A stretch of DNA of 64,000 nucleotides from Candidatus Scalinduaceae bacterium (GTDB lineage: Bacteria; Planctomycetota; Brocadiia; Brocadiales; Scalinduaceae): the NCBI GenBank assembly GCA_046759445.1, contig JBHICG010000010.1, positions 1 to 64,000 of the forward strand. Direction: 5' to 3'. Each line of letters opens with the position of its first letter. Positions within the stretch are counted from its first letter, which is position 1. The translations under genes were made by a program, and so were the position numbers. Shown one piece after another: positions 2,691 to 39,684 of the stretch. Under the pieces are notes generated by a model. It did not search any database and was not told the origin of the DNA. It saw only the letters and a program-made list of their open reading frames with translations.

Positions 2691-3728
2691 TTACCTGCGC
2701 TTATTTACAAACAAACCGACTGACAGAATCACAATAATGACACCATTAAAAAGCAGGATACCTATTCTTGCACCAAAAGCTGGAAGCTCTTGTTTAAAGT
2801 AAAAGGCCGGCGTCTTTTCATCAACCCAGTTTACATAATAGTTCTTGGTTTCTCTATTTGAAGTATGCACATTATCACCATTTTCTAAAAAATCATTACG
2901 AAAAATCACTTGAAAGTGCTGAAAGTAGTTTTTTAATGATACCCTGGGGAAGAAATATTTATCATTAAACGTTTCTAGTTTATATAGTTTTCCCTCCTTA
3001 ACGACATCTACATCTCCAGTTTTACCGTTGACATAAGCCTTGTGGACTTCCAATGCAGAAGCAGGTTGACCTTTATATAAATAATATATATTAATAGTCG
3101 GGTCAAAAAGAATCCATTTTCTTAATTCAGGCAACCAGACTTCCACGGCATAATGTCCCAGATAATCTGAGTCTCCATCAGGTGCTGTTTGAAAATGAAT
3201 AAGCCGAGCATTTCTTCCCAAACTTAGGCATGCTGTCATCATGGCTTTTGAGATTGAACCGCACCAGAACTTTCCCCCTTTCAAAACAGTTTTTACCAGA
3301 TCAAAATAGGTATTGTAGTTCCGGTTCGCCGATTTAAATTCTTTTTTCGATGCATATTCTGTTTTTTCATGAATATGATTCATCAATCGCAATACCAGTT
3401 CGTAATCATCTTGATAATCTTCAATTGCTGGGTAAACTTGATCTTTAACCCACTTTAATTCGTATGTACTTGGACTTTCAAATATGAAAGGAATAGATAA
3501 ACCTGCTTTAACAACTTTCCACTTTTTGGGACAATCTATGCAATCTTCATCATCATAGCTCACCGACCAATAAACGTCACCTATTTTCTCAGTATCAATC
3601 CTGACATCCTTACCGAACGGAGTACTCCCAAATTTACATGCCAAAAAGATTTCAACAGCCGTCAATCCAACAACAACCACAATACTGAAAAACCAATAAC
3701 GTTTGATAACAATGAAAAAATAGTTCAT
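2691..3728 (-). CDS. Membrane-anchored transglutaminase-like protein
   Basis: Cys-His-Asp-like triad context FWCGSIS...GHYAVEVW...WILFDP; hydrophobic N- and C-terminal segments. Confidence 0.75.
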   Translation of the reverse strand: MNYFFIVIKRYWFFSIVVVVGLTAVEIFLACKFGSTPFGKDVRIDTEKIGDVYWSVSYDDEDCIDCPKKWKVVKAGLSIPFIFESPSTYELKWVKDQVYPAIEDYQDDYELVLRLMNHIHEKTEYASKKEFKSANRNYNTYFDLVKTVLKGGKFWCGSISKAMMTACLSLGRNARLIHFQTAPDGDSDYLGHYAVEVWLPELRKWILFDPTINIYYLYKGQPASALEVHKAYVNGKTGDVDVVKEGKLYKLETFNDKYFFPRVSLKNYFQHFQVIFRNDFLENGDNVHTSNRETKNYYVNWVDEKTPAFYFKQELPAFGARIGILLFNGVIIVILSVGLFVNKRR

Positions 3729-3786: not shown

Positions 3787-5133
3787 CTATATTCCGTAAA
3801 ACCGTGTCAAATTTATATAAGTAAAAATTATAAACATGATAGTCCGAAAAGGTACCTCCCATTTTACAGGAATAATTGGTTCTTCGGGCTCTGGTTGTTT
3901 CTCCGTGACTCGTTGATGTTCTCTTAAAATTATACCTTTTAAACAGTAAGCAAGGCACACAATCGTATAAAACTCTAAGTCGTAGCCACGGTTTGAGAAT
4001 TGCCCGGCAACAAAGAGCCCAACCAGTGTAATCCCTAATCCATCTACCAAGTACCTCAGATGATTAAGATCTTGGTTTTGCTTGCAGAATTTTCTCATTT
4101 TCCATATATCTCGCACACTTAGCCAGACAATTACTAAAAACAATCCCAATCCTACCATTCCCATCTCGGCACCTATCTGCAGTGTCATATTATGAAGTTT
4201 TGCTGTACCACCAACCCTTTTTTGCTCCTCAGGTGTAGCGTATTTCAGAAAATTTGAACCTGACTCTCCTGAACCCACTCCAAAAATTGGGTTTGTAGAT
4301 AACATCCGAAGTCCTGCCGACCAGAGGGCCAACCTCTGTCCACCCGTACCGCGCTGCTCCATATCGACAGAAACAGTTCTAAATCTTTCCCAGTGAACGT
4401 CAGAAACTCTCGTAAACAAAATAAACATAATTGGGATTACAAATAAAAGAACCTTCTTTGTTCTTAAATTGTTTAAAACCAGAATAATAAGAACTACACC
4501 TAAACCAAGGTATGTCCCCCTTGAGTTGGTGCCTGCGATACTTAACACAATAAGCATTAGGTAGCAGATAGCTTCTGCCTTTCGCAGTATACCTCTTTCA
4601 ACCATCACAAACGTTCCCAAGAATCCTATAGCTCCTAAAAGGCTATAGCCAAAAAAATTCTTATTTTCATAATAGGGAGCCACAACACCTTGATATCGAG
4701 ATACAAAGGCAAGATCGGCATAAGCAATAATTATTATCCAAATGAGAAATTTAAACTTCCACTTTGTATCTATCGCATTTGTAACCAAAAAAAGAAATAT
4801 AACAATCTTTAAAAAACTTTCTATTTCTTCACCTTGCCATGGTTCAAGTCCGTTGACAATTCTTGAGAGAAACATCCATCCAAATAATGATGCTATAAGG
4901 ATAACTTGAGGCGCAAATTTCATTTTCCCTCTATTGATAAATATAGTAGAAATCAGGGCAATTAATGGGGTTATGGTGAGTGGCTTTAGAAATCTCAAAG
5001 ACACGAATAGTATCTTATTATACATAAGAGCAAAGTAGAGATAGAAATAGAAAACTCCATAAGAAGGTCTTTTTACAGAGAAAATCCAGATTAAAAAAGT
5101 GATTAATATGATAAATATCTCTTGTTTACTCAT
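3787..5133 (-). CDS. O-antigen ligase / Wzy polymerase family membrane protein
   Basis: Polytopic; TNSRGTYLG, RLALWSAGLRM..NPIFGVG, LHNMTLQIGAEMGMVG motifs. Confidence 0.85.
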   Translation of the reverse strand: MSKQEIFIILITFLIWIFSVKRPSYGVFYFYLYFALMYNKILFVSLRFLKPLTITPLIALISTIFINRGKMKFAPQVILIASLFGWMFLSRIVNGLEPWQGEEIESFLKIVIFLFLVTNAIDTKWKFKFLIWIIIIAYADLAFVSRYQGVVAPYYENKNFFGYSLLGAIGFLGTFVMVERGILRKAEAICYLMLIVLSIAGTNSRGTYLGLGVVLIILVLNNLRTKKVLLFVIPIMFILFTRVSDVHWERFRTVSVDMEQRGTGGQRLALWSAGLRMLSTNPIFGVGSGESGSNFLKYATPEEQKRVGGTAKLHNMTLQIGAEMGMVGLGLFLVIVWLSVRDIWKMRKFCKQNQDLNHLRYLVDGLGITLVGLFVAGQFSNRGYDLEFYTIVCLAYCLKGIILREHQRVTEKQPEPEEPIIPVKWEVPFRTIMFIIFTYINLTRFYGI

Positions 5134-6166
5134 ACGTTTTCATACCATCCTTTCTTGCCTTTCTGGCAACAACCACCATTGAATCTCCATAACCAAGCAA
5201 TTTTGCAAGTGGATAGATTGTGATAACCATCCACAGGCAGAATTCATGCATCAACAATCTTGGTAGTTTTCTCACTGGGAAAAAAGCTTTTATCGATACA
5301 TGGTTATTATCAAGCTTAGTAGTTTCATTCGACCAGGTTTCGTGACCATGGTTTTTTGTTGTTTTATTATTTCTTCTTCTCAATACATTAATAATCGAAT
5401 TCTCTAATTCTCCCACGGTGTAAGGCCTAAAAATTTCAAAATTTCTTGAGTCAATCCATTCAAAACCTGCCTTTTTAAGTGTCTTGCGTAATGTCCTTTT
5501 AGAAAACTGGAACACATGGCCTGGGGGAGTAGGATGCTCCCAAGCGCTTATAGTTTTACATAATAGATAAAAAGTTAATCTGGGAAAAAGACCATTAACG
5601 TTTGGCGTTGAGATTACAACAAGTCCATTGTCTTTTACCACCCTGGCAACCTCTTTAAGTGTAGAAATGGGATTCGGCATATGCTCAATACTATCAAATA
5701 ATGTTACGGCATCAAAATATTGGTCTGGAAAATCAATCCTATTTCCCGCTTGGATTTTCACCCGGTCACCATAACTCATTTGGTTCTTTTCTACCAGGTT
5801 ACAGTTGACATCACTGCCATAAGGAGTCCAGCCTTCTTTAGCTACCATTCCCAAAAAAATACCTGTTGAACACCCTAAATCAAAGATATTTTCTATATCC
5901 CTTTTATGTTTTTTGAGTAGGTTGATAGCTTTTTTGAATTTCTTTATTTTGTGGACATCATGTTCCTCTTCTCTCTGACTGACAGTGATTCTTTCAACAG
6001 TTGAGTTTGCAGATACATTGTACAGCTCAGCAAGCTCATCCTCACCTAAACGGGGGTTTAGATAGACTAAACCACATCCATTGCACTGAACAACATTGAA
6101 AGAAATTTTTTTAACTAACAAATGCGTATCGTCCATGTTGCAAATGATGCAGTTAACATGTTCCAT
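5126..6166 (-). CDS. Class I SAM-dependent methyltransferase with N-terminal Cys-rich Zn-binding region
   Basis: CIIC...CNGCGLVYLNPR; FDLGCSTG; FDSIEHMPNP. Confidence 0.85.
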   Translation of the reverse strand: MEHVNCIICNMDDTHLLVKKISFNVVQCNGCGLVYLNPRLGEDELAELYNVSANSTVERITVSQREEEHDVHKIKKFKKAINLLKKHKRDIENIFDLGCSTGIFLGMVAKEGWTPYGSDVNCNLVEKNQMSYGDRVKIQAGNRIDFPDQYFDAVTLFDSIEHMPNPISTLKEVARVVKDNGLVVISTPNVNGLFPRLTFYLLCKTISAWEHPTPPGHVFQFSKRTLRKTLKKAGFEWIDSRNFEIFRPYTVGELENSIINVLRRRNNKTTKNHGHETWSNETTKLDNNHVSIKAFFPVRKLPRLLMHEFCLWMVITIYPLAKLLGYGDSMVVVARKARKDGMKTYE

Positions 6167-6279: not shown

Positions 6280-7812
6280 TTAGCACAGATACTTCTTCAA
6301 GACCTTACCTAAAGGACTCTTGGGAATCTCTTTCCGAAACTCAACAATCCTTGGTATCTTAAAATCAGATATCTTACCCTCGCAAAAATCTACAATCTCT
6401 CTTTCATTACACTGACCATTAGGAATGACTACTGCTTTTATAATATCCTCACCGTAATGGTTCTTTACCCCTACCACAACAACCTCTTCTACTTTAGGAT
6501 GTGTGACCAGGAGCATTTCTATCTCCGATGGGTCCACTTTATTACCTCCTGTATTAATAAAAAGTGTCTTCCTACCGGTGATATAGAGATTTCCGCTATT
6601 ATCTTTTTTCCCCAGATCCCCAGGGAAAAAATAACCATCCCGAAAGGATTCCCTGTTGAGTGCTTCCAATCCTGAATAACCCATGATCATAGCAGGACTT
6701 CTAATGCCCATATTACCTGTCTCATCAGGTGGTAAAACCTCACCATTCATACCAAAGATCTCTACCTCCACATTCTTCATTGGTAAACCAACAGATTCTA
6801 CAGTCTTTGAAATATTCTCATCCAGATTTATTGATACAGAGCCAGTCTCCGTTGAACCATATAGCTGCCTAACAGATACTCCATATTTCTCATAGAATTT
6901 CTGAAATGTCCTATGCGGTAAAGGAGCGCCAGCCGAAAAACAAAGTCTTAAGGAAGAAAGTGTTATCTCATCTCTTAAAGGAGTGTCGGCTAACATATTG
7001 AACATAAAAGGTACTCCCGGGAAAACAGTAATCTGCTCTTCCTGGATTGTTTTTAATATTCTACGGCGGTTAAAATCCTCTAAAATAACAAGAGTAGCTC
7101 CGGCATAAGTTGATGCTAGCATACAATTCCCAAGGCCATGTGCATGAAACAAAGGTACTACGCATAGGATTTTGTCATTACCAGTCATATTAACGCTAGT
7201 GCAAAATTGTTCTGCTTCAGATATAAGATTAAAGTGAGTGCGAATAATCCTTTTGGGTTGTCCTGTAGAGCCTGAGGAGTACTGACAAAGGACTTCACTT
7301 TGTGGCGACAAGTTCCTTGTTCCATTCAAAGAGAAATTCTCTTTAATTAAGCTCATATATGAAAATGACTCATCTTCTCCATCAGGGACGCCAATGATGG
7401 TACACTCTTTGTCAGCAATAAAAGACGTAATTTCTTTAATCAAAGGAATTATCTGCCTTGATGCAATAATTATCTTAGGCTTAGAGTCCCTTATATAATC
7501 AGTAAGCTCTTGCTCTTTATACTGAACATTTAGTGGAACCGCTACGGCCTCCACCTTAGCTATTGCAAAAAAACTTATGATAAATTCTGGAGAGTTCTTA
7601 AGCAGTAATACTACTCGATCACCCCATTGAATTCCTAGGGAGATCATACCTCCAGCTAATCTGCGAATATTATCATACAAATCGGCATAGGTGATTTTCT
7701 TGTCACCGTGAATAATAGCAATCTTATTAGGATGCCTATCACCATGTTCAGAAATCCATTGCGGAAGTACCTTATCCTCCATCTTATCCATTTTTATTAA
7801 GTTTATCTCCAC
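6280..7812 (-). CDS. Class I adenylate-forming acyl/aryl-AMP ligase
   Basis: YSSGSTGQPK P-loop, YGSTETG, GDLG, GRK..INTGGNKV, PKSPLGKVLK; adjacent to ACP; true start may be a downstream Met. Confidence 0.9.
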   Translation of the reverse strand: MEINLIKMDKMEDKVLPQWISEHGDRHPNKIAIIHGDKKITYADLYDNIRRLAGGMISLGIQWGDRVVLLLKNSPEFIISFFAIAKVEAVAVPLNVQYKEQELTDYIRDSKPKIIIASRQIIPLIKEITSFIADKECTIIGVPDGEDESFSYMSLIKENFSLNGTRNLSPQSEVLCQYSSGSTGQPKRIIRTHFNLISEAEQFCTSVNMTGNDKILCVVPLFHAHGLGNCMLASTYAGATLVILEDFNRRRILKTIQEEQITVFPGVPFMFNMLADTPLRDEITLSSLRLCFSAGAPLPHRTFQKFYEKYGVSVRQLYGSTETGSVSINLDENISKTVESVGLPMKNVEVEIFGMNGEVLPPDETGNMGIRSPAMIMGYSGLEALNRESFRDGYFFPGDLGKKDNSGNLYITGRKTLFINTGGNKVDPSEIEMLLVTHPKVEEVVVVGVKNHYGEDIIKAVVIPNGQCNEREIVDFCEGKISDFKIPRIVEFRKEIPKSPLGKVLKKYLC

Positions 7813-7897
7813 TAGGGTTGGTACGCCATAAAACGATAAATCATGCTATAATTTGCATTACACTTAAGGGAAATTTAACCATTCATCTTTCTAAGGT

Positions 7898-8164
7898 CTA
7901 CTCATAATTTAATTCCTTGCTGACGTACTTAGCTAAATTTCCTATATTCTCGAAATATTCAATACGCAGTTTAGATTCATCAATAAAGATGTTAAACTCC
8001 TCTTCTAACCCGATCACCAATTCTTGAAGGGCAATTGAATCCAGCCCAAGCCCCTTCCCAATAAGTGGTGTACTTCTTGATATCTTTCGAACATCAACAC
8101 ATAGTTTTAGCCTATCAGTAATTACTTTCTTTATCCTTTCTTCAATGTTGGTTGATGTTTTCAT
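7898..8164 (-). CDS. Acyl carrier protein
   Basis: 88 aa; GLGLDSIALQELVIGLEEEFNI phosphopantetheine Ser motif; GGGGG SD-like stretch upstream. Confidence 0.9.
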   Translation of the reverse strand: MKTSTNIEERIKKVITDRLKLCVDVRKISRSTPLIGKGLGLDSIALQELVIGLEEEFNIFIDESKLRIEYFENIGNLAKYVSKELNYE

Positions 8165-8190
8165 GGAAAAACCCCCTTATCTTGATGTTA

Positions 8191-8772
8191 CTATAAGATC
8201 TCCATACCATTTTCTGGAAACTTTTCAGTGATTAACATAATAGGCAAGTGATTTGCAATTACTCTATAAGTCCTGAAGATTAGAAAATCATCCTTTTCTA
8301 TATTGAAATCATCTGCTAGATCATGAGCTTTTTCTTTGCCGCAATCCAAGATCTCACGGAATGTTTCTAAACGATTCTCCAAAAGTAATAGACCAATGGG
8401 CTTGTTGCTGTTTAATAAACCATCTCTTATATTTTCTTCCAGCCTGTCAGGGACTATTATAGAATCACCATAGAGATGATTTTTTTGACTTAATTTTCCA
8501 CGTAAGAATATCCTTCTCTGCATAACATTACACTCTTTTTTTATCTCTAAAGAGGGGATGTCATGATCTAGGATAAAATGATCCTGAAATATCTTTATTA
8601 CCTTCATTCTTTCCCAAAAAACAGCTTCTAGCATCTCAGTCACCATGCCATCTGTAGTTAGAAGAACACGCTGAAAAGAAGTGAGATCACGTGGATTTAT
8701 GGGGCTACGCTTTAAGGTCTGCTGAAGATCGAGGCGTAACAGATTGTTGTTTTTAGCAGTAGTAATGCTCAT
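8191..8772 (-). CDS. Chorismate pyruvate-lyase family protein (DUF98/Rv2949c-like; 4-hydroxybenzoate synthase)
   Basis: QRVLLTTDGMVTEMLEA, KPIGLLLLENRLETFREI, RTYRV..PIMLITEKFP; start moved to ATG 8772 behind a GGAGG RBS (ORF track starts at 8799). Confidence 0.8.
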   Translation of the reverse strand: MSITTAKNNNLLRLDLQQTLKRSPINPRDLTSFQRVLLTTDGMVTEMLEAVFWERMKVIKIFQDHFILDHDIPSLEIKKECNVMQRRIFLRGKLSQKNHLYGDSIIVPDRLEENIRDGLLNSNKPIGLLLLENRLETFREILDCGKEKAHDLADDFNIEKDDFLIFRTYRVIANHLPIMLITEKFPENGMEIL

Positions 8773-8834
8773 AATTAATTCCCTCCTATCAAATCCCAAT
8801 TCGATTAAGGTTATGTAAATATTCCATACGTTGA

Positions 8835-9764
8835 TTAAGCAGTAATTAATCTACTAATCTGGTTATTTTTAATCCTATAATTTTCAAAGCCATATTGCTG
8901 TACAAGCCATTTCACCGTTTTATCTATTACGTTTTTTTCAGCTTTTATAGATGTAAATGTATGATGACTGTTAGGCACTATATAATATTCACAAGAGTGT
9001 ATTTTGCCTTCAGATAGCTCCTTGAATTTGACCTCGAATTCCTCTTTTGGGATAATATCTCTTTCTCCGTATACAAAGAGACCCTTTCGTTTGGAGGAGA
9101 GAAAGGCGTCAAAAGCCTCAAAAAATTCTCTATGCCTTTCATCTTCTCTTTTTTTACTTCCTGCAATCAAAATCCAAAGGACTTTGTAAATTGAAAATAG
9201 ATTACTATCACTTTTACCTGAAAGAAATTTTCTCCAGGAGTTAGCATTAAGTGTCTTTTTCATCCATCCCCTCAAACGACCATTGGCCGTTACTTTACTC
9301 ATCGCTTCACTGCCAGGTAGTATCGACCCCGAAATCTTCTGCGAGTCAGTAATGATGGGAAGTGACCATGAAACAATGGAATCTACCCTTTTGTCCTTTG
9401 CCGCAGTCATCAAGGCATTCCTCGCACCAGCACAAGTTCCTAAAAGTACTACCCTTTCAATCTTTTCTTCTTTTGTGAGAAAATCTATGGCCCTTAACGT
9501 ATCTTCAGTATCAAATAGATCAAAATTGACATCTTCAATCTCTCCTTCGCTGTCTCCTATCCCAGGGAAATCTATCCTTAAAGCGGAAAACCCTAACCGA
9601 CTTAATCTTCTTGCGGTTTTTACATAAATCCTGTGGGGGCCTACCCTGTATTGAAGTCCAGCGTTCAAAAAGATAACCCCAACCTTTTTGCTATTATTCT
9701 CGGCATTGTGCAGGATACCAAAGATATTTTTCCCTCTACTTTGAAAATGTACGGGTCTTTCCAT
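8835..9764 (-). CDS. Alpha/beta hydrolase, exosortase A system-associated hydrolase 1-like (Cys at nucleophile elbow)
   Basis: GLQYRVGPHRIYV, RIDFPGIGDSEG, LLGTCAGA, HHTF; start taken at MERPV (9764). Confidence 0.8.
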   Translation of the reverse strand: MERPVHFQSRGKNIFGILHNAENNSKKVGVIFLNAGLQYRVGPHRIYVKTARRLSRLGFSALRIDFPGIGDSEGEIEDVNFDLFDTEDTLRAIDFLTKEEKIERVVLLGTCAGARNALMTAAKDKRVDSIVSWSLPIITDSQKISGSILPGSEAMSKVTANGRLRGWMKKTLNANSWRKFLSGKSDSNLFSIYKVLWILIAGSKKREDERHREFFEAFDAFLSSKRKGLFVYGERDIIPKEEFEVKFKELSEGKIHSCEYYIVPNSHHTFTSIKAEKNVIDKTVKWLVQQYGFENYRIKNNQISRLITA

Positions 9765-9787
9765 TTCTAAAGGTGCTACCTCTATTA

Positions 9788-10612
9788 CTAATTTTCTGTT
9801 ATACATTTTAAAGTCTCTGTATATAACTGCACGGGGAAATACCACTCATAAAGAAATTGTGAATCCCAAAAAACTTTATCATTAACGATCTTCATCTCAC
9901 ATAAAGTTTCCTTCATCTTGTAAGCTTCCAAGAGAGTTTCATATGATCTGTATAATCTAGGTCTACTCTTTATTGTGCAAATGAGAACTGAACCTCTAAA
10001 ATTTGACACCTTAGCCTTTGTAATTAAACAAATTTCTAAGAGTTGCTCATAGACCTGTCGTGTTAGGTAATGACCTTCTATATCGACTAAGCCTTTAGAT
10101 TGCAGCTCCTCAATAATTTTTTCCCGAGATGTTGGAGAGAGTTTGTTGAATAATTTTGACATAACCACTTTTCTGAATAGCTCATCAAGATAATCTTTGC
10201 CATTAATGATGGGAGACCATAAAATGAGCTTTTCTATTCTGTTATCACGTTCAGCTGCCAGGGCTGCAACCGTCCCGCCAAATCTTAGACCTAGCAAACT
10301 TATTTTTTCAATGTTTAGCTGTGTCTTTAAAAGATCAATAGCCTTTATGGTATCAGCAATCTGAGTTTCTACAGTAGCATCTTCGAAGTCTCCTTGACTA
10401 TCCCCATACCCAAAACAGTCGAAGCGTAAGACGTAAAACCCCTTATCACATAGTTCTCTGGCAAACTTGACTAACACTCTATAGCTTTGCTGTTTCTCAT
10501 CACCATAAGGGTGACAAAAAATTATTCCTTTCCTTTCTCTGCTATTTTTTGGATTGTGTAAAATAGCAAATAGTCTTTTGCCTTCATTTTCAAAGTAAAA
10601 TGCCTTTTCCAC
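9788..10612 (-). CDS. Alpha/beta hydrolase-fold protein, exosortase A system-associated hydrolase 2-like (Arg at nucleophile elbow)
   Basis: CHPYGDEK, RFDCFGYGDSQGDF, LLGLRFGG, LILWSPIING. Confidence 0.8.
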   Translation of the reverse strand: MEKAFYFENEGKRLFAILHNPKNSRERKGIIFCHPYGDEKQQSYRVLVKFARELCDKGFYVLRFDCFGYGDSQGDFEDATVETQIADTIKAIDLLKTQLNIEKISLLGLRFGGTVAALAAERDNRIEKLILWSPIINGKDYLDELFRKVVMSKLFNKLSPTSREKIIEELQSKGLVDIEGHYLTRQVYEQLLEICLITKAKVSNFRGSVLICTIKSRPRLYRSYETLLEAYKMKETLCEMKIVNDKVFWDSQFLYEWYFPVQLYTETLKCITEN

Positions 10613-10720
10613 CTGATTCTCTTTATCTTTTCACACTTTTTATAAAAAATATGGAACTTAACTAGTTTATCGGATTATTTCTGAACATTATTAGTAATAT
10701 TTAAGCTCGTGATTGATGTC

Positions 10721-12121
10721 CTAGACTTGAACGTGAAAAGCCGTTGCGGGTAAGAGCTTTGAATCTTTTTCCAATCCTTCCTTCATTTTTCCCATCCGGC
10801 GAGCTACCAGTAGGGCCATCTCGAGAGATTGCTCATAGTTTAGCCGCGGATCCACCTGGGTCTTGTAGGCCTCGGTAAGGTTCTTTTCCGTTATCCCTCT
10901 TATACCACCGATACACTCAGTAACGTTATCCCCAGTAAGCTCAAAATGGACACCGCCTAAATAAGAGCTTTCCTCGTGGTGAATTTCAAAGGCCTGCTCT
11001 AGCTCGCCGAGTATATTCTCGAAGTTACGGGTCTTGATTCCTTCACTGGTAATTTCTGAGTTTCCGTGCATAGGATCACAGCACCACAGTACTACCCTTC
11101 CTGCCTTCTTGACGGCTCGGATCAAAGGTGGTAAGTGATCGATAATCTTATTGACTCCAAAACGATAAATCAGAGTCAGACGCCCTGCTTCATTACGAGG
11201 ATTCAAAATCTCTGTTAACGCTATGAGCTCATCTGGAGTGATAGTGGGCCCTATCTTCACTCCGATAGGGTTCTCTATGCCACGAAAGTACTCAACGTGG
11301 GCACCGTCAAGAGCACGGGTTCGATCACCAATCCAGGGAAAATGTGTGGAGAGGTTGTACCAGCCTGGGCTGTGGGGAACCTGGCGCGTTTGAGCCTGCT
11401 CGTACAAAAGGTGTAGTCCCTCATGGCTGCTGTAAAAGTCTAACCGGTTTATTTCCCCAATGGGGGCGTTTGTAATCGTTTCCATAAATTTAATGGATTC
11501 ACCGATGTTTTTGACTATCCGCTGATATTCTCTTGCCTGGGGAGATTGCTTTACGAATCTCATATTCCAGTACTCGGCATGGTGCAAATCGGCAAATCCT
11601 CCGTCCACGAGAGACCTGATAAAGTTCAACGTTAATGCTGCCCGCTCATACCCTCGAAGGAGTCGTTCTGGTTTAGGAACACGGTCAGCTTCTGTGAATT
11701 TAATGCCGTTAATCATATCTCCCCTATAGCTCGGGAGAGTCACACCATCACGAGTCTCCATGTTAGCAGAGCGTGGCTTCGCATATTGACCAGCGAAACG
11801 CCCCACTCGAATCACCCTCTTCTTGCTTCCATGCATTAGAATGAGACACATCTGAAGAAGAATCTTGAGTGTGCTTGCAATGCGGGAAGACTCACAGTCT
11901 TCAAAGCTTTCCGAGCAATCTCCACCCTGTAGAAGGAAGCTCTTCTCCCTAGTTGCCTCGGCAAGTTGTTTCTTGAGGGCTTTAACTTCCCAGCTTGTTA
12001 CAAGAGGTGGCAACCTGGAAAGTTGTTTTAAGACCTTGTTGAGAACGTCCTTATCCGCGTATGTGGGTTGCTGGACTGATAATTTATTCTGCCAGGATGT
12101 TGGAGACCAATCGTTCTGCAT
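10721..12121 (-). CDS. Class II 3-deoxy-D-arabino-heptulosonate 7-phosphate (DAHP) synthase
   Basis: WSPTSW, LLQGGDCSESF, GRFAGQYAKPRS, LPSYRGD, WIGDRT, CDPMHGN, GGVHFELTG, DPRLN; start taken at MQNDW. Confidence 0.93.
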   Translation of the reverse strand: MQNDWSPTSWQNKLSVQQPTYADKDVLNKVLKQLSRLPPLVTSWEVKALKKQLAEATREKSFLLQGGDCSESFEDCESSRIASTLKILLQMCLILMHGSKKRVIRVGRFAGQYAKPRSANMETRDGVTLPSYRGDMINGIKFTEADRVPKPERLLRGYERAALTLNFIRSLVDGGFADLHHAEYWNMRFVKQSPQAREYQRIVKNIGESIKFMETITNAPIGEINRLDFYSSHEGLHLLYEQAQTRQVPHSPGWYNLSTHFPWIGDRTRALDGAHVEYFRGIENPIGVKIGPTITPDELIALTEILNPRNEAGRLTLIYRFGVNKIIDHLPPLIRAVKKAGRVVLWCCDPMHGNSEITSEGIKTRNFENILGELEQAFEIHHEESSYLGGVHFELTGDNVTECIGGIRGITEKNLTEAYKTQVDPRLNYEQSLEMALLVARRMGKMKEGLEKDSKLLPATAFHVQV

Positions 12122-12421: not shown

Positions 12422-13756
12422 TCAATAATCACATGACTTTCCACCAATGTCAGGAAATTCTAAATATGTTCTAGGTATTGAAATGCTGGTTTTACCTTTT
12501 TCATCAGGTTGATTGATCTGAATTTTAGCAATTTTGTTTCCATCAAGACGAATAATAGTCTTTTCGGGATGGTTTGTATAAAAGGTTATACCTTGTAATT
12601 GTTCTAAAGTCGGAACAAAGTTTCCATCAACCTCATCTTTGACATAGAGAATGTCGATCACAAAAATGTCATCTTTACAGGTAACTCGCCAAACTAAATT
12701 TTTGTTCACTAAATGAGAGGTTAGTAATCTGGTAGTTGTAGTCACATAAATATCCCCCTTATAGTACCGATCTGCCAGATCTCTTAATACCCTTTTAGAG
12801 CCGTCAGGAATAATGTCTGTACATCCATTACTCTTACGTCCCATGTGTACATAGACTATTGAGCTTCCACTTATTTTTATAAGTTTCTTTAACTTATCTG
12901 GAGCTAATGTCGCTTCTAAAGAAGCTGCATCATCATTAAACCAATCACCATAGCGCTGAAAACAATAAACCTTATCACCACTGGTAAACGTCTTTACGAA
13001 AATCAGAGGATTTTTAAATAAAATTTCCAGTTGTTTCCTTTTCTTCGAAAGAAATGACTCTCTTGCAAGAAAGCGCTGTGGTACATAATTGAACACGAAA
13101 TACAACAGGTAATTGGGGATAAGCCATTTGCGGTTCGAACTATCTGAAATGAGTTCCCACCATCCTATTTTTCTATTCTGACCAAGCACAGATGTGACAA
13201 CCATTGGCCAATAGAAACGTATCCCAAATTTCTTGCTCAAATCGGTGTGATATTCTACAATTTTTGTTGCAACACCATCTCCAATAGATCGCTCCTTCAT
13301 ACCACCGAGGTAGTTGATATTTTGGAAATTATGCATGTCACCATGGTCTGTCCAAGTCTGAACTCGCATCTCTTTACTTTCCAGCTCAACAATAGCTCTT
13401 TCTGCATAATCTCTATGAAATCCCCCATACTGATTAAAGTTGCCATAGGTATGTAAACAGTCCAAGTACCCTGCTTTGACTAACCTTCTAATGGCTTCAG
13501 CATAGGGTGTTTGTTCATTGCTCAATCCATTGAAGTAGGTAAACGCATCACTTACGTCTGAGTTAACAGAATACATCCAAAATGAATCCCCAATCTCTAA
13601 TCCTAAACCCTGTCCCAAAGAGGTTTCTTCATTCGTGTTGAGAAAGCGGTGGATTTCAATAAATTCTTCGAATGAGTAGCCGTCAAGATCATTGCAAAGC
13701 GTAAGTGCTGCCTTAAATGGATATGGGAACTTCCTTAAAGAAATATTACATTTCAC
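12422..13756 (-). CDS. Hypothetical protein, possibly a divergent polysaccharide deacetylase-like metalloenzyme
   Basis: LRKFPYPFKAALTLCNDLD, LDCLHTYG, WTDHG, YVHMG; GTG start at 13756 with GGAG RBS overlapping the asnB end. Confidence 0.55.
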   Translation of the reverse strand: MKCNISLRKFPYPFKAALTLCNDLDGYSFEEFIEIHRFLNTNEETSLGQGLGLEIGDSFWMYSVNSDVSDAFTYFNGLSNEQTPYAEAIRRLVKAGYLDCLHTYGNFNQYGGFHRDYAERAIVELESKEMRVQTWTDHGDMHNFQNINYLGGMKERSIGDGVATKIVEYHTDLSKKFGIRFYWPMVVTSVLGQNRKIGWWELISDSSNRKWLIPNYLLYFVFNYVPQRFLARESFLSKKRKQLEILFKNPLIFVKTFTSGDKVYCFQRYGDWFNDDAASLEATLAPDKLKKLIKISGSSIVYVHMGRKSNGCTDIIPDGSKRVLRDLADRYYKGDIYVTTTTRLLTSHLVNKNLVWRVTCKDDIFVIDILYVKDEVDGNFVPTLEQLQGITFYTNHPEKTIIRLDGNKIAKIQINQPDEKGKTSISIPRTYLEFPDIGGKSCDY

Positions 13757-15683
13757 AACTAATCTCCATTTTGTTTGTCTGTCTACTATCAACAGGTTTG
13801 TCCTCAAACATCGGTACCCAATTATCCTTATCCAAAAAGATTCGGTGCCAGATTTCCACATTTAGCATCTGCCATAGTAAGTGCTGTCTGTTTCTTCGCC
13901 CTTCAACATGCTGATACACGCATCTTCTAACTATATCTGGATTGAATACTCCCCTGTCTAAACATTTTTCATCAAGTAATATTTTTTGTAGAAAATCCTT
14001 TAATCCATCTTTAAACCATTTTGCAATAGGCGTTGGAAACCCCATTTTCGGTTGCCCGTAAACCTCACTCGGCAGTTTTTCCCGCATAGCCTCTTTGACA
14101 ATATGCTTTAATTCGTAATTTTTTAATTTCTCTTCAAATGGAATGGAAAGCGCAAAGTCGACCATTTCGTTGTCACAGATCGGTAACCGCGCCTCTATGG
14201 AGTGTGCCATACCTACTTTATCTTCTACAATAAACAGAGCAGGTAAATATGTCTTTAAGTATAAGTATTGAACACGATCTAAAATACTCTCTGGCGCTTG
14301 GCCAAGAAGTGAATATAATGTATCCATAGGATCATAATCAGCCATTTCTTTTTGCAATTCATATCCCAATATCGACTTCCATTTCTTGTGATTAAGACTC
14401 AAATTCATTCCTAAACCCATTTCTGGCCGTATGAGTGGAATTAAAATGTTCACGATGGCGGCTTTCCACTCCCCTGGCTTCAAATTTTGTAACAGTGTTA
14501 TTAAGCGCAAAGGGTTGCTGTGAATCAAAGAACTAAAGTAGTGCATCTTGTAAAGCGGATACCCACAAAACAATTCGTCACCGCCATGTCCTGTCAGGAC
14601 GACTTTGACGTGCCTTGAAACAAGACGAGAAACATGGTATTGGGGAAAAACACCTGAGCCTACCCTTGGCTCATCAAGGTGAAAGATTATATCAAATATA
14701 CTCGCTTCGAAATCCGACTCACTGATATTAATATGATAATTCTTGGCACCAATATTTTCTGCAACAGCCTTAGCAGCGACCCGTTCATCAAATGCCTGGC
14801 CTTCTTCAAAATAACCTGTAAATGTGTCTAATAACCCACCATTTAATTCAGCAGCATATGTTGCAACAGAGGAGGAATCAAATCCCCCGGAGAGATATGC
14901 CCCGAGTGGCACATCACTCATCAAATGTCGTTTAACCGACGCCTTTAAAATAGCGCGGAATGTTTGTATATAGTCTTGATGGTCCAGAAACAGTTTCTTT
15001 TTAAATGAGGGCTGCCAATAGCAACCCATTTCCAGTTGTCCCTCACTAATGGTTAAGGTGTGCCCCGGGAGCAGTTTCTTGATCGAATCGAAAAAGGTCT
15101 TATCATCCAACAAATTCTGAAAGACCAGATAATCGCTTAAAGAGGCTGGGTTTAATCTCCTTTTCGCTCGGGCGTTAACCAATATGGCCTTGATCTCCGA
15201 GGCAAAAGTCAGCCGTTGTCTATCATGGTCCCAATGGTAGTAAAGTGGCTTAATTCCTAACCGATCTCTTGCAAGGAAGATAGTTTGAGTGTTCTGCTCC
15301 CAGATAGCAAACGCAAACATGCCATTGAATTTCTTTACACAATCGATACCATATTCTTCATAACTATGTAAGATCACCTCTGTATCTGTCTTTGTGCTAA
15401 ATCGGTGTCCTTTTGTTAAAAGGTCTGTGCGTAGATCCTTGTAATTATAAAGTTCGCCATTATAAACAATAACACATGAGCCATCTTCGTTGTATATAGG
15501 CTGTTGACCCGTGAATAGATCAATGATGCTGAGTCTTTTGTGGCCAAGGGCGACTCCAGGCTTTTCAAAATAACCCTCATCATCAGGTCCTCTATGGTGA
15601 AGCAATGCATTCATTTGTTTTACTTCATCCAATAAAGACCCTTTTTTGAAATTTGGATCATAAATCCCACATATACCGCACAT
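13746..15683 (-). CDS. asnB: Asparagine synthase-like glutamine amidotransferase, paralog 2
   Basis: MCGICG at 15683, HRGPD, RLSIIDL, YLSGGFDSS, GHGGDELF, KMGFPTP. Confidence 0.92.
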   Translation of the reverse strand: MCGICGIYDPNFKKGSLLDEVKQMNALLHHRGPDDEGYFEKPGVALGHKRLSIIDLFTGQQPIYNEDGSCVIVYNGELYNYKDLRTDLLTKGHRFSTKTDTEVILHSYEEYGIDCVKKFNGMFAFAIWEQNTQTIFLARDRLGIKPLYYHWDHDRQRLTFASEIKAILVNARAKRRLNPASLSDYLVFQNLLDDKTFFDSIKKLLPGHTLTISEGQLEMGCYWQPSFKKKLFLDHQDYIQTFRAILKASVKRHLMSDVPLGAYLSGGFDSSSVATYAAELNGGLLDTFTGYFEEGQAFDERVAAKAVAENIGAKNYHINISESDFEASIFDIIFHLDEPRVGSGVFPQYHVSRLVSRHVKVVLTGHGGDELFCGYPLYKMHYFSSLIHSNPLRLITLLQNLKPGEWKAAIVNILIPLIRPEMGLGMNLSLNHKKWKSILGYELQKEMADYDPMDTLYSLLGQAPESILDRVQYLYLKTYLPALFIVEDKVGMAHSIEARLPICDNEMVDFALSIPFEEKLKNYELKHIVKEAMREKLPSEVYGQPKMGFPTPIAKWFKDGLKDFLQKILLDEKCLDRGVFNPDIVRRCVYQHVEGRRNRQHLLWQMLNVEIWHRIFLDKDNWVPMFEDKPVDSRQTNKMEISCEM

Positions 15684-15687
15684 AGAC

Positions 15688-16926
15688 TCAATTATGTTTA
15701 TTATTGTAAGAAGAGATAACTTCCTGATAAATCTCAATCAATCTTTTTGCATTCTCAGACCAGGATGCATGAGAGCGCAAAAATTGCAATGCCGTATTTC
15801 CCATCCTTTGACGCATTTCTTTGTCTTCAATTAGCACATTCACTGCCTGGATAATCCCTGCAATATCTTTCTTCTTCACCAGAAAACCAGTTTTACCATT
15901 CCTGATAATCTCTGGAATCCCTCCTACTGCTGTCGCAACCACTGGTTTCGCACAGGCCATGGTTTCTAAAACTGCATTGGGAACACCCTCATAATGGCTA
16001 GGGAATATCATGATGTCCCCGGCTTTAACCCATTGCGAAACCTCTTCATGGGGTACAAAGCCTGTCAAATGAACTGCATCTTTTAATCCTAGTTCATCAA
16101 TACGTTCATAAAAAACTTTTTCATCCTTTCCACTACCAATCATTAAAAGATGAATCTTATCCGCCCAACGCTTTCTAAGATGACCGTATACTTCCAAGAG
16201 TTCAAAGATTCCTTTATTTTCCTCTAACGCCCCCAACAGAAATAGAATAATCTTTTCTTGTGGCAACCCAAGTTTTTCACGCAATATTATCTTTTCTATA
16301 TCGTCTGCAGGCTGAAACCGTTCAAGATCACAACCATTGTAAACCACACTAATCTCTGATGCAACTCGAGGCTCCAATTCGCCAGCGACACTGGCGAGAT
16401 CTGCACTGACAGTCACTAATTTGTCACACTCCCTTAACACCTTGCGCGTGGCTATCATGGAAAATTTGCCGTAGAATGGATAGACGTTTAGATCTCCTCT
16501 AGAGACACAGAGACATGGAACCCTAAATTCCCTTGCCAACCATAAAGCTGCAAAACCATCGGGAACAATGGTATTGGCATGTATTATTTGAAAAGGAAAC
16601 TTTTTATATATTTGTCTTACAAGTCTAGCTATACCTGTAAATAAGGCAATGCCTGACCAACTAAAATTTATGTTTCCAGGTAATTCCAGGTGAGGAGGAT
16701 AATATACATTCACACCATCGTAAATAGAAACTAATGGAGTCAATCCGTACATTTTCCATTTTTTTTTAAACCATAATACTCTTGGTGCCCATGGGATTGA
16801 TGAAATCACTTTTATATCGGCCCCTTCTTTCAATAAGTATTTTACTTGCAAATGAGCAAAGATACCTGATGTTTTAACGTACGGTTTAGGATAAAGGGTG
16901 GATAATATCAAAACCTTAATCGTCAT
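15688..16926 (-). CDS. Glycosyltransferase family 4 (TuaC-like)
   Basis: VLILSTLYP, VVYNGCD, FPSHYEGVPNAVLETMACAKPVV. Confidence 0.88.
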   Translation of the reverse strand: MTIKVLILSTLYPKPYVKTSGIFAHLQVKYLLKEGADIKVISSIPWAPRVLWFKKKWKMYGLTPLVSIYDGVNVYYPPHLELPGNINFSWSGIALFTGIARLVRQIYKKFPFQIIHANTIVPDGFAALWLAREFRVPCLCVSRGDLNVYPFYGKFSMIATRKVLRECDKLVTVSADLASVAGELEPRVASEISVVYNGCDLERFQPADDIEKIILREKLGLPQEKIILFLLGALEENKGIFELLEVYGHLRKRWADKIHLLMIGSGKDEKVFYERIDELGLKDAVHLTGFVPHEEVSQWVKAGDIMIFPSHYEGVPNAVLETMACAKPVVATAVGGIPEIIRNGKTGFLVKKKDIAGIIQAVNVLIEDKEMRQRMGNTALQFLRSHASWSENAKRLIEIYQEVISSYNNKHN

Positions 16927-35067: not shown

Positions 35068-35235
35068 ATTAACCCTCGATTGAAAAATAGTAGATATATG
35101 AAACTTGACATATATGGTTTCATAAATTTATTTAGTCAAGTCTTAAAATACTCTATTGTTTTCTTAAAACCCTTATTCAAAGTTTTTATATAATATGTAA
35201 ATTTGATATAACTTCTAATATTTGTTTACTTTAAG

Positions 35236-35730
35236 TGGGCGTAGCTCCGCCCTCTAAGTTACATCTTAGGATGTAACTTACAGGATGATTTCATCTAAAT
35301 AATATCTTATCGGCTGAGCGAGTCATTCAGACATATGCCGTAAAATGTCGCAGAACTCAGAACACAAATTTCATATAACAGTTACGATTACAAGGCTCGT
35401 TTTGTGCGTTGCTTTATAGTTGCATAATGTGGATTGATTTCAATATTGTCTTGTTATAAACATATTTAACTGCTAAAAATTGGAATTATAAGTTTATTCG
35501 CAAATGTTTTGCCCAAGATCTGGCAATTTTGTAAAGATAAACTTTAAAATATATAACTTATGCACACATAACTAATTATGAATATAATGAAATACCTGAT
35601 TATTTTCCAAATGTCATCTGATGTTTACAAAAATCAACACTTCTTTTTTTAACTTTCATAACACATTGCTAATGCAAGAGATAAGAATATCCAACAAAAG
35701 CTGACAGAATGTTACCTTTTTGAATATTTT
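35236..35730 (-). promoter_or_regulatory. Conserved regulatory cassette copy B
   Basis: Minus strand TGGGCAAAACATTTGCG 35499-35515; TGT-N12-ACA 35622-35639; leader with perfect TAAGTTACATC-N4-GATGTAACTTA hairpin followed by GAGGGCGGAGCTACGCCC, 35236-35280. Confidence 0.8.
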
Positions 35731-38469: not shown

Positions 38470-38693
38470 AAACGTATCTCCTCTAATTTACCTTATTTAA
38501 ATTTTTTTGATAGATCAAATCTGTCTCGTACCTAAAATACTAAAGCAATCATTTAAAAACAGTTTTTCAAATTACAACTTCACTAAACGACAGAAGGAAC
38601 AACTGAATCGTATAGTTGATTTTTACTAATTATAATTTGTTTCGGAACAAAAAAATAACGAATATCAAATAATCAAAACTTTTTGAATGATTT

Positions 38694-39628: not shown

Positions 39629-39658
39629 TATCCCCGCCTAAAATGACGGGGTATTCAC
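39629..39658. repeat. IS200/IS605-end-like imperfect hairpin; may also act as terminator after the serine hydrolase
   Basis: ATCCCCGCC-TAAAAT-GACGGGGTATTCAC. Confidence 0.4.
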
Positions 39659-39684
39659 GTTATGTTTTTCATAAATACAATCAG

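Follow-up and report, generated by a model that had tools for sequence, protein, structure and literature searches.

A six-gene module in an EPS locus that may make an aromatic acyl donor and hand it on

In the mycobacterial phenolic glycolipid branch (Rv2949c, FadD22, Pks15/1), a PF01947 lyase stands beside an adenylate-forming enzyme and a carrier. According to a published report (PMC7205293), Rv2949c yields p-hydroxybenzoate (p-HBA), FadD22 adenylates it, and the route leads from chorismate via p-HBA and aroyl-AMP to a carrier thioester. The locus described here shares this logic and its lyase belongs to the family to which Rv2949c gave its name in Pfam. However, its lyase is of a different subfamily, a gene of its own encodes the 88-aa ACP, there is no polyketide synthase as the next step, a Cys/Arg alpha/beta-fold pair comes downstream in the proposed scheme, and the surroundings are those of an EPS locus. 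In the xanthomonadin and arcuflavin clusters, as described in another report (PMC3949708), chorismate-derived 3- or 4-hydroxybenzoate is activated by an AMP ligase of the same cluster. The chorismatase there is of the XanB2 type, a family other than that of the PF01947 lyase. The hydroxybenzoate is then carried on an ACP and serves as the starter of an aryl polyene that a ketosynthase builds, whereas our locus has no ketosynthase. A further relative is the exosortase A (XrtA) set, which presumably also includes a PLP decarboxylase (TIGR03099) and an ACP; we found no experimental work in the literature on its TIGR03098, TIGR03100 and TIGR03101 families. TIGR03100 and TIGR03101 are the best curated families for the two alpha/beta-fold proteins of our locus, hyd1 and hyd2, and the hyd2-then-hyd1 order is the same, but neither they nor the ligase reach the curated cut-offs, and our locus has no PLP decarboxylase, exosortase or PEP-CTERM tail but instead encodes a lyase and a DAHP synthase. 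The replacement of the usual substrate-supplying gene that was proposed originally would be one way to read this.

We analysed a 64-kb stretch of DNA (hereafter the window), in which six co-oriented and closely packed genes, each a real ORF, run on the minus strand from 12121 to 6280 (Table 1). As the original prediction had it, they are contiguous and encode, in transcription order, a class II DAHP synthase, hyd2, hyd1, a PF01947 lyase, an ACP and an AMP ligase; the intergenic distances are 108, −19 (an overlap), 62, 26 and 85 bp, and no terminator-like sites were found between the six genes. The start of hyd1, which gives its 19-bp overlap with hyd2, was set by a 94%-identical relative of 323 aa (P0243). 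The methyltransferase, Wzy/ligase, transglutaminase-like and AsnB genes predicted 3' of the module were all matched by NCBIfam or Pfam, the first two sharing an 8-bp overlap. A scan of 46 large window ORFs with NCBIfam and/or Pfam bore out the claimed absence of a ketosynthase, an NRPS condensation domain and a UbiA-type prenyltransferase, and no PLP decarboxylase was found among them either. By the same scan the host locus is of the XrtA-type EPS kind, with TIGR03006 above its cut-off and TIGR03015, TIGR03007, TIGR03018 and TIGR03027 below theirs; the EPS setting that had been claimed holds, but neither an exosortase gene nor a PEP-CTERM tail was found within the 64 kb. The ORF upstream of the module had no match in Pfam or NCBIfam. 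Its nearest ESM Atlas clusters are annotated 'hypothetical protein' (0.97) and polysaccharide-deacetylase clusters appear only at 0.84–0.86 (TM 0.52–0.58), so that a distant NodB-like fold is possible, as a lead only.

Table 1 Features of the module and its flanks in the window
Feature	Position	Strand	Remarks
AsnB-like protein	502-2406		3' of module
Transglutaminase-core protein	2691-3728		3' of module
Wzy_C / O-glycosylation-ligase-like (PEP_O_lig_1-like) membrane protein	3787-5133	minus	PF04932 79.7 bits; TIGR03097 120, below 188.1
Class I SAM methyltransferase (context)	5126-6166	minus	PF13489 86.6 bits; directly 3' of module; module role putative
ANL (adenylate-forming) enzyme of 510 aa, presumably an aryl-acid:ACP ligase	6280-7812	minus	PF00501, PF13193
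Stand-alone ACP, 88 aa	7898-8164	minus	PF00550; GLDSI phosphopantetheine site
Chorismate-lyase-family protein (PF01947/DUF98, Rv2949c-like), 193 aa	8191-8772	minus	PF01947
hyd1, alpha/beta-fold, Cys-His-Asp triad	8835-9806	minus	Best family TIGR03100; GTCAG ... GERD ... HHTF
hyd2, alpha/beta-fold pseudo-hydrolase	9788-10612	minus	Best family TIGR03101; elbow GLRFG
Class II DAHP synthase, 466 aa from ATG at 12121	10721-12121	minus	First module gene; TIGR01358, PF01474
ORF upstream of module, unnamed family	12422-13861	minus	Context only

The linkage of these genes was surveyed by blastp of the window proteins against 80 lyase loci. The hyd2-hyd1 and lyase-ACP-ligase blocks co-occur in three of them, from the distant lineages Ca. 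Brocadia, Woeseia and Binatia, and the internal order of each block is kept there while the overall order varies by lineage. All five genes are present in the Ca. Brocadia (L003) and Woeseia (L008) loci; the Binatia locus (L011) has the lyase, the ligase, hyd1 and hyd2, and L001, L002, L004, L007 and L013 have the lyase, the ACP and the ligase. This shared recurrence of two internally ordered blocks shows that the arrangement is not chance. It is scarcely credible that the genes are adjacent by accident and share no function: the varying gene order and the lack of the DAHP synthase elsewhere would agree with it, but the joint recurrence in three other lineages, the fusions that exist inside each block (lyase-ACP and hyd2-hyd1), the overlapping gene ends and starts and the terminator-free spacing all speak against it.

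The lyase scored 61.5 bits with PF01947 (gathering score 22). Foldseek with its AF2 model (pLDDT 84.7) gave 2nwi, itself a protein without known function, as the closest solved structure (TMq 0.75) and also retrieved E. coli UbiC (1fw9, E 3.4e-5; 17–20% identity in the structural alignment), which a PDB profile search with the lyase did not reach. The predicted fold matches the DUF98 and UbiC type. Orthology to the cyanobacterial chorismate lyase NF037993 was ruled out (31 bits against a cut-off of 175), and none of 15 members of the lyase subfamily reached that cut-off (30–58 bits); judged by these scores, the subfamily is not orthologous to a characterised chorismate lyase. This distance, and that from UbiC, would suit a pipeline of the same design in which the PF01947 product is another chorismate- or isochorismate-derived acid, such as 3-hydroxybenzoate or salicylate. 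The cyanobacterial PF01947 chorismate lyase, however, yields 4-hydroxybenzoate, and to our knowledge so do all characterised members of the family. The mycobacterial report (PMC7205293) gives the same product for Rv2949c, and we regard a different acid as quite unlikely.

The adjacency of lyase, ACP and ligase spans Planctomycetota, Gammaproteobacteria, Binatia and cyanobacteria. ACP orthologues adjoin the lyase in L001–L004, L007, L008 and L013, in 20/80 loci a ligase 41–69% identical to that of the window is encoded no more than 10 kb from the lyase, and a lyase-ACP fusion protein of 312 aa (P0116) was found. The ACP of the window matches PF00550 (28.6 against 20.8) and has the DSI serine. 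Since the block is conserved across phyla and the fusion exists, its best reading from the sequences is a chorismate-derived aryl-acid branch with ACP loading. The ligase matched PF00501 (289 bits) and PF13193 (54.5 bits). Of the curated families it fits best into a generic one, PRK06187, a subfamily of long-chain fatty-acid CoA ligases (381, below 476); the aryl-acid model TIGR02275 gave 226 against a cut-off of 723, and the best PDB matches were feruloyl-CoA synthetase 8wev, FadD13 and 4CL, with FadD5 also among the neighbours; its best curated and solved relatives are generic fatty-acyl, feruloyl, 4-coumarate and oxalate ligases.

The DAHP synthase exceeded the TIGR01358 cut-off (641.3 against 614.7 bits) and scored 642 bits with PF01474. 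Among solved relatives the full-length type was best (500 bits for 5uxm, as against 252 bits for 6bmc, a short form), and full-length class II enzymes are the primary-metabolism, feedback-regulated type. The enzyme may therefore be a housekeeping one after all. Its gene has a GC3 of 0.497, as compared with 0.23–0.39 in 19 other window genes, and because of this outlier inside the operon it looks more like a compositionally foreign add-on that was acquired than like a native housekeeping gene. The blastp survey found a class II DAHP synthase in none of the 80 lyase loci; the enzyme, which is of class II and encoded by the first gene as predicted, is a lineage-specific addition and a module member in this lineage only. 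A class I DAHP synthase follows lyase and ligase in four cyanobacterial loci (L015, L019, L023 and L034), which ties the lyase to the shikimate pathway by evidence from outside the window; the lyase-linked DAHP synthases come from two unrelated classes, II in the window and I elsewhere. These class I genes, the conserved block and P0116 support the shikimate-to-hydroxybenzoate branch proposed originally, although the lyase is no NF037993 orthologue. The full-length type of the DAHP synthase, together with PRK06187, FadD13 and FadD5 as relatives of the ligase, would fit another scheme, in which ligase, ACP and hyd pair serve a fatty, hydroxy or amino acid while lyase and DAHP synthase act separately, for example in housekeeping aromatic or quinone supply. 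We consider this improbable in view of the conserved lyase-ACP-ligase adjacency, the 20/80 loci with a ligase at least 41% identical, the lyase-ACP fusion and the acquired look of the DAHP synthase gene.

hyd1 and hyd2 are not ordinary hydrolases. In hyd1, aligned with 9pjb, a Cys falls on the catalytic Ser, HTF on the His and D on the Asp; in hyd2 the nucleophile elbow carries an Arg, which aligns with the catalytic Ser of 9pjb and 8b4u, and the catalytic His is missing. The elbow Cys was found in 92 of 103 hyd1 relatives and the elbow Arg in 147 of 151 hyd2 relatives. Fused hyd2-hyd1 proteins made up 38 of 150 representative relatives, with hyd2 as the N-terminal half, in the order of the genes, and the Cys was present in 39/39 of a set comprising the 38 fusion C-domains and hyd1 of the window. 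The substitutions and the fusions are plain from sequence, and the pair is a Cys-His-Asp enzyme with an Arg-elbow pseudo-enzyme, a finding new in this analysis. A heterodimer was predicted (0.91; best control 0.00), that is, hyd1 and hyd2 are predicted to bind each other. As for family labels, PF01947 and PF01474/TIGR01358 pass as proposed, but membership in TIGR03100 (hyd1, 116.8 bits; cut-off 168.45), TIGR03101 (hyd2, 126.5; 202.75) and TIGR03098 (ligase, 238; 592) was rejected, so that the labels 'hydrolase 1' and 'hydrolase 2', and that of an exosortase-type ligase, name the best family match only. Both elbows also occur in fusions that pass the TIGR03100 cut-off (P0381, P0393 and P0469).

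PHA synthase PhaC, Cys thioesterases and dienelactone hydrolase are Cys-nucleophile alpha/beta-fold acyl-transfer enzymes, which combine His and Asp with a G-x-C-x-G elbow and form acyl-thioester enzyme intermediates from thioester donors. The elbow of hyd1 is of the same type, but no specific relationship was detected, and the solved structures nearest to hyd1 are esterases with a Ser nucleophile that act on aromatic acids: for hyd1 and hyd2 alike these are MHETase and the feruloyl, cinnamoyl and chlorogenic acid esterases, in matches covering the N-terminal ~140 residues. This kinship with aromatic-acid esterases also speaks for the proposed transfer. We know of no obligatory Arg-elbow pseudo-enzyme partner in the PhaC, Cys thioesterase or dienelactone hydrolase families. 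Because of the Cys triad of hyd1, the Arg elbow of hyd2, the fusions and the predicted binding, thioester-based acyl transfer fits the pair better than hydrolysis; the role of acyl transferase foreseen for it thus gains support, while the description as hydrolases does not.

Loci lacking the hyd pair have other acyltransferase families by lyase-ACP-ligase, PF03279 in L002 and L007 and PF01553 with PF00198 in L001, which favours a transfer role for the pair. Fused hyd2-hyd1 also occurs without ACP or ligase nearby, outside EPS loci (L081 and L082). Such lipid-type acyltransferases (PF01553, PF03279) and fusions, and the natural-product-like clusters in which the cyanobacterial lyase subfamily is found (NRPS, sulfotransferases, radical SAM, aminotransferases, TPP enzymes), are what one would expect if the module made an aromatic small molecule, free or bound to lipid, such as a pigment precursor, a signal or a membrane compound, with hyd1/hyd2 as an off-loading thioesterase or as an esterifying enzyme for a non-glycan acceptor. 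We take this possibility seriously but think it unlikely, as the window genes are co-oriented and packed between EPS genes with a Wzy_C-type gene two genes downstream, EPS genes also surround L003, L007, L008 and L013, and enzymes that might elongate the acid (ketosynthase, NRPS, prenyltransferase) are absent from the window. An O-methyltransferase of the COMT type (PF00891), which we take to be typically phenol-directed, is linked in 6/80 loci; it lies directly after hyd1 in L003 and follows the lyase in Microcystis loci, and this linkage adds to the support for an aromatic, ACP-bound intermediate. The methyltransferase of the window matches PF13489 instead and is not of this type, so the suggested O-methylation finds backing in other loci but not in its own.

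The reading we favour, with a little less than even confidence, is that the six genes form one sub-operon making an aromatic acyl donor, which is handed to the product of the surrounding EPS locus. Several findings count against it: the hyd pair accompanies the lyase in only 3/80 loci, fused hyd2-hyd1 also occurs away from ACP and ligase, the lyase subfamily is not orthologous to a characterised lyase, the ligase has mainly generic relatives, the DAHP synthase is of the full-length type and of a class absent from the 80 loci, and no element for binding an acceptor or recognising a glycan was found. The DAHP synthase would raise shikimate-pathway flux, and the PF01947 enzyme, by family and fold, would convert chorismate to hydroxybenzoate, most likely 4-hydroxybenzoate. 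The ANL ligase would then adenylate the acid and load it onto the stand-alone ACP, as the conserved adjacency and the lyase-ACP fusion suggest. From the ACP, the aroyl group would move to the Cys of hyd1 by transthioesterification, hyd1 acting in the modelled dimer with hyd2 as a catalytically dead partner whose Arg occupies the nucleophile position, and from there presumably to a product of the locus (glycan, glycoprotein or lipid-linked repeat unit), on which a hydroxyl or an amino group would be acylated. Later O-methylation is possible, although the type of the window methyltransferase gives no indication of it. The proposed combination of aromatic-acid synthesis, carrier loading and a two-part transfer enzyme in a sugar-polymer locus is new to bench study.

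Searches for ORFs and protein families recovered the six genes between 12121 and 6280, in the order that the original prediction had given (Table). The large ORFs of the window are without exception encoded on the minus strand, and transcription thus runs from high to low coordinates; in that direction the module genes are separated by 108, −19, 62, 26 and 85 bp. No terminator-like site was found between them by a terminator scan, which is informative only in this sense because its promoter and terminator counts did not exceed the shuffled expectation. The module is followed, as had been noticed, by a class I methyltransferase, a Wzy_C-type membrane protein, a transglutaminase-core protein and an AsnB-like amidotransferase, and the family searches bore out that the remainder of the window is a single long EPS locus, with an XrtA-type set (export protein, chain-length determinant, ATPase and tyrosine kinase) and an XrtA-system deacetylase (TIGR03006, 343 bits, cut-off 276). 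It also encodes a flippase, several glycosyltransferases of the GT4 and GT2 families, a carbamoyltransferase and sugar-nucleotide enzymes. None of the 46 large ORFs scanned gave a match to a ketosynthase, NRPS condensation domain or UbiA prenyltransferase, in agreement with the earlier reading, and none to a PLP decarboxylase. Families of the XrtA system are thus represented; neither an exosortase domain nor a PEP-CTERM-like tail was found in the 64-kb window, which may hold less than the whole locus.

Genes of the module in order of transcription, with family matches and residues of the alpha/beta-fold pair at the catalytic positions
Gene	Position	Strand	Family match	Catalytic positions
Class II DAHP synthase	10721-12121	-	TIGR01358 641.3 bits, cut-off 614.7 (profile positions 1-440 of 443); PF01474 642 bits	
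hyd2, alpha/beta-fold	9788-10612	-	Best family TIGR03101, 126.5 bits, cut-off 202.75	Elbow GLRFG, Arg at the catalytic Ser position; catalytic His absent
hyd1, alpha/beta-fold	8835-9806	-	Best family TIGR03100, 116.8 bits, cut-off 168.45	Elbow GTCAG, Cys at the catalytic Ser position; His and Asp kept
PF01947 'Rv2949c-like' protein (lyase)	8191-8772	-	PF01947 61.5 bits, gathering score 22	
ACP, 88 aa	7898-8164	-	PF00550 28.6 bits, cut-off 20.8	Ser in D-S-[LI] motif (GLDSI in translation)
ANL ligase, 510 aa	6280-7812	-	PF00501 289.4 bits (N-terminal); PF13193 54.5 bits (C-terminal)	

The two alpha/beta-fold proteins, likened to the 'hydrolase 1' (hyd1) and 'hydrolase 2' (hyd2) of exosortase A systems, are not plain serine hydrolases with a Ser-His-Asp triad and a G-x-S-x-G elbow. 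Aligned with their closest relatives of known structure, 9pjb (an MHETase) and 8b4u (elbow GLSMG), both proteins departed from the motif at the nucleophile, and the substitutions are family traits: the elbow Cys is present in 92 of 103 sequences of the hyd1 family and the elbow Arg in 147 of 151 of the hyd2 family. Judged from these alignments, the pair would consist of one catalytic Cys subunit and a catalytically dead partner with an invariant Arg.

An exhaustive HMMER search of representative proteins showed that hyd2 belongs to a wide family (13,889 representatives at E <= 0.001, 222 at E <= 1e-30), and about a quarter of the best 150 representatives (38) are fusions of 560-685 aa in which hyd2 forms the N-terminus and hyd1 the C-terminus. 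The Cys is present in all 39 sequences when the 38 fusion C-domains are taken together with the window hyd1, and the His in 34 of them. By the curated cut-offs, neither protein is a member of the family that it matches best (Table), and the same holds for their relatives: none of the 18 hyd1 relatives scanned, out of 102 found, reached TIGR03100, and none of the 68 hyd2 relatives scanned, out of 150, reached TIGR03101, the best scoring 198.4. Three fusions among those 68 (P0381, P0393 and P0469) did reach the TIGR03100 cut-off, meaning that the Cys/Arg pattern also occurs in sequences that the curated model accepts as hydrolase 1. A plasmid search for a canonical annotated hydrolase 1/2 locus gave no match for the fusion P0381 and weak matches for hyd2. 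Fused hyd2-hyd1 genes were found in two unannotated regions on megaplasmids of Caballeronia and Methylobacterium (L082, 8767-10746; L081, 8335-10701); the former locus lies among sugar-utilisation genes and the neighbours of the latter match no recognised family. With no ACP or ligase nearby, these two loci imply that the pair is not always linked to an ACP.

Structure prediction supports a hyd1-hyd2 heterodimer. The predicted complex scored 0.91 in each of three runs and the best control 0.00; 116 of 157 solved complexes attain the score mark, as do 2 of 215 mismatched pairs, counts that hold only roughly because the alignments were our own. Contact agreement between the runs is 64% or more and partner pLDDT at least 87. 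In the model, hyd1 contributes to the interface its conserved GPHR loop and residues 266-277, which flank its catalytic His, and each protein contributes its GxGDS loops. By analogy with Cys-dependent alpha/beta-fold transferases, a Cys nucleophile with a dead partner argues for thioester-to-thioester acyl transfer over simple hydrolysis. For hyd1 as well as hyd2, the closest relatives of known structure are aromatic-acid esterases (MHETase, feruloyl, cinnamoyl and chlorogenic acid esterases), a match limited to the N-terminal ~140 residues, and this kinship fits a transferase role. Lyase-ACP-ligase genes without the pair adjoin other acyltransferase families, namely PF03279 (L002, L007) or PF01553 with PF00198 (L001), suggesting that the pair fills a 'transferase slot'.

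Fold and family point to a chorismate lyase for the fourth gene, with the conversion of chorismate to 4-hydroxybenzoate and pyruvate as the putative reaction. Its AF2 model (pLDDT 84.7, pTM 0.80) has the chorismate-lyase/UTRA fold, closest to the DUF98 structure 2nwi (TMq 0.75), and matches E. coli UbiC more distantly (1fw9, E 3.4e-5; 1fw9/1g1b, 3e-5 to 6e-5). We examined orthology to the characterised cyanobacterial chorismate lyase NF037993 and ruled it out (31.4 bits, cut-off 175); all 15 subfamily members tested likewise stayed below this cut-off, at 30-58 bits. A profile search of the PDB started from the lyase alignment did not recover UbiC and thus yielded no alignment of the conserved Arg and Glu residues to its active site. 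It is improbable, but conceivable as a variant of our main reading, that the enzyme makes a chorismate-derived acid of another kind; the name-giving PF01947 member, Rv2949c, makes p-hydroxybenzoate, which FadD22 adenylates (PMC7205293). A COMT-type O-methyltransferase (PF00891) is linked to the lyase in 6 of the 80 other lyase loci compared, directly after hyd1 in one of them from Ca. Brocadia (L003). Such methyltransferases are typically phenol-directed.

The ligase belongs to the ANL adenylate-forming superfamily. Two narrower assignments were rejected: the exosortase A acyl-CoA ligase TIGR03098 (238.2 bits, cut-off 592.35; the generic PRK06187 scored higher, 381 bits) and the DhbE/EntE-type aryl-acid adenylating enzyme TIGR02275 (226.6 bits, cut-off 723.55). 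Against solved structures it scored lower with DhbE, EntE and PchD entries (142-160 bits) than with 4CL and FadD13 types (210-227 bits). That the acyl group handled is non-aromatic we regard as a small possibility.

The lyase-ACP-ligase block is conserved beyond the window, as the gene-neighbourhood survey that had been proposed made clear. Among 1082 candidates, 748 lyase relatives were found at E <= 1e-5, including a lyase-ACP fusion of 312 aa (P0116). A pattern-plus-tblastn scan with one genome per species located 141 relatives, of which the best 80 loci, many ending at contig ends, were kept, and window proteins were compared with all their ORFs by blastp. In 20 of the 80 loci the lyase has, no more than 10 kb away, a ligase 41-69% identical to that of the window, the remaining AMP-binding ORFs being only 21-30% identical, and an ACP stands beside both in seven (L001, L002, L003, L004, L007, L008 and L013). 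Three loci, L003 (Ca. Brocadia), L008 (Woeseia) and L011 (Binatia), have the hyd pair in addition to the lyase block, always hyd2 followed by hyd1. Adjacency by chance would leave such recurrence to coincidence, and we consider it highly improbable. Four loci (L003, L007, L008 and L013) have EPS contexts with flippase, Wza/Wzz, GT4, deacetylase and GDP-mannose genes, and L008 also encodes a PEP-CTERM protein at a distance of 2.6 kb from the module. In most cyanobacterial loci the lyase is found amid natural-product-type genes instead (sulfotransferases, HemN-like radical SAM, class III aminotransferase, TPP enzyme, sulfatase, NRPS). A non-glycan product in place of decoration of the locus polymer has its precedent there and the EPS contexts against it, and appears unlikely for the window.

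Some of these neighbourhoods are of interest in themselves. B12-binding radical SAM pairs accompany lyase-ACP-ligase in Ca. Brocadia and two unclassified MAGs (L003, 15976-20090; L002, 6137-8986), suggesting that these lineages modify the aromatic unit by C-methylation or another radical reaction. In L015, L019, L023 and L034, a ligase, a class I DAHP synthase, a halogenase-like protein, a bicupin and DoxX lie ~0-9 kb 3' of the lyase; this cyanobacterial set looks like an undescribed halogenated aromatic natural-product cluster, and L023, labelled Candidatus Gracilibacteria with a cyanobacterial neighbourhood, may be mis-binned. The Microcystis loci L062, L064 and L080 may represent the aeruginoguanidine cluster. 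This identity stays a lead, since the passages on that cluster in PMC12371840 name sulfatase, sulfotransferases, NRPS and prenyltransferase and no lyase.

The DAHP synthase is closer to the full-length type (5uxm, 453 aa, 500 bits in one stretch), which we take to be the regulated form, than to the short form 6bmc (405 aa, 252 bits in two stretches), presumably of the phenazine type. PhzC-type enzymes are short (~400-aa), feedback-insensitive, cluster-dedicated class II DAHP synthases, and those scores speak against this identity. The gene is a compositional outlier (GC 0.478; GC3 0.497 against 0.23-0.39 in 19 other window genes), suggesting acquisition from a GC-richer donor. Its relatives share 97, 88, 82, 82, 79 and 79% identity and then form a broad plateau at 66-72%. 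Identical 'longest contig' values were found for relatives of the lyase, DAHP synthase and hyd1 (P0010, P0122 and P0250; 23,157 bp), of DAHP synthase and hyd1 (P0126 and P0272; 18,127 bp) and of lyase and hyd1 (54,258, 31,217, 35,982 and 3,611 bp). The matching values are indirect evidence for linkage in near relatives, not proof of synteny; taxa named with the close relatives are Ca. Brocadia, Ca. Scalinduaceae, Ca. Brocadiaceae and Planctomycetota. No class II DAHP synthase was detected near the lyase in the 80 other loci. The class I enzyme that follows lyase and ligase in L015, L019, L023 and L034 is unrelated to it, so the lyase subfamily was joined to the shikimate entry enzyme twice, independently.

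The surrounding EPS locus has further features of its own. Directly upstream of the module, a 479-aa ORF (12422-13861) matches no Pfam or NCBIfam family; in the ESM Atlas it falls into unnamed clusters with weak likeness to NodB/polysaccharide deacetylases (0.84-0.86, TM 0.52-0.58), and a deacetylase activity, if present, could free an amine for N-acylation. L003 and L008, like the window, have a protein of 452-479 aa and unrecognised family next to the module, but these proteins are mutually unrelated (blastp E > 0.8). Three AsnB-like glutamine amidotransferase paralogues (502-2406, 13746-15737 and 40973-42907) have the XrtA/PEP-CTERM amidotransferase TIGR03108 as best family, with 634, 521 and 506 bits against a cut-off of 817. 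Besides the module-adjacent methyltransferase there are five more methyltransferase-domain genes, two of them with an N-terminal Trm112-like zinc-ribbon (16997-18181 and 21377-22402), and this total of at least six points to a heavily methylated product. Two genes for LPG_synthase_TM/flippase-like membrane proteins (43012-43944 and 55289-56227), a NodU-type carbamoyltransferase (46650-48452) and a PMT_2-type glycosyltransferase (26412-28442) point to further modifications of the polymer. The sole family-supported plus-strand ORF, a PilZ-domain protein (57321-57650, 40.2 bits), may be a c-di-GMP input to the locus. A second local GC peak (0.432, 36001-38500) covers a DUF4185 and fn3 ORF (36328-38469), with ~1.2 kb devoid of large ORFs on either side (35067-36328 and 38469-39685).

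Taken as a pathway, the lyase would convert chorismate to hydroxybenzoate, the ligase would activate this as aroyl-AMP and load it as aroyl-S-ACP, and hyd1, bound to hyd2, would take over the aroyl group from the ACP on its Cys and hand it to an acceptor made by the locus. We hold this whole chain tentatively, at a little under an even chance. The module shares its supply-and-load logic with the mycobacterial Rv2949c/FadD22 pair and with xanthomonadin starter units, and is a variant of such systems, not unique to the window. Its hyd pair is related to the exosortase A 'hydrolase 1/2' families but lies below the curated cut-offs, like the ligase. The usual exosortase A arrangement combines the hydrolase 1/2 set with a PLP decarboxylase. 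The terms hydrolase, acyl carrier, decarboxylase, ligase and TIGR03100 do not occur in Haft 2006 (PMC1569441), and our literature search, in line with the original prediction, found no paper on the combination or on the hydrolase pair.

A broader reading makes hyd2/hyd1 a new heterodimeric or fused aroyl-transferase, in which hyd1 would be the Cys-His-Asp catalyst and hyd2 an Arg-elbow pseudo-hydrolase docking the donor or acceptor; hydroxybenzoyl from the ACP would esterify or amidate an exopolysaccharide or glycoprotein, and the exosortase A pair would likewise be an acyltransferase. Jointly, these claims are rather unlikely. The charge, hydrophobicity, gelation and degradation resistance of bacterial exopolysaccharides are controlled by the acyl groups that they carry, and to our knowledge those described are small aliphatic ones; a dedicated route for aromatic acylation would bring new chemistry to EPS and cell-surface glycans. 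If the reading is true, anammox-type Planctomycetota and other environmental bacteria would make extracellular polymers acylated with aromatic groups, which would be relevant for granule- or floc-forming bacteria such as anammox relatives because matrix properties affect wastewater technology. By extension, the exosortase A 'hydrolase 1/2' pair would be an acyltransferase and not a hydrolase, giving a first testable function to a pair annotated for years without experiment.
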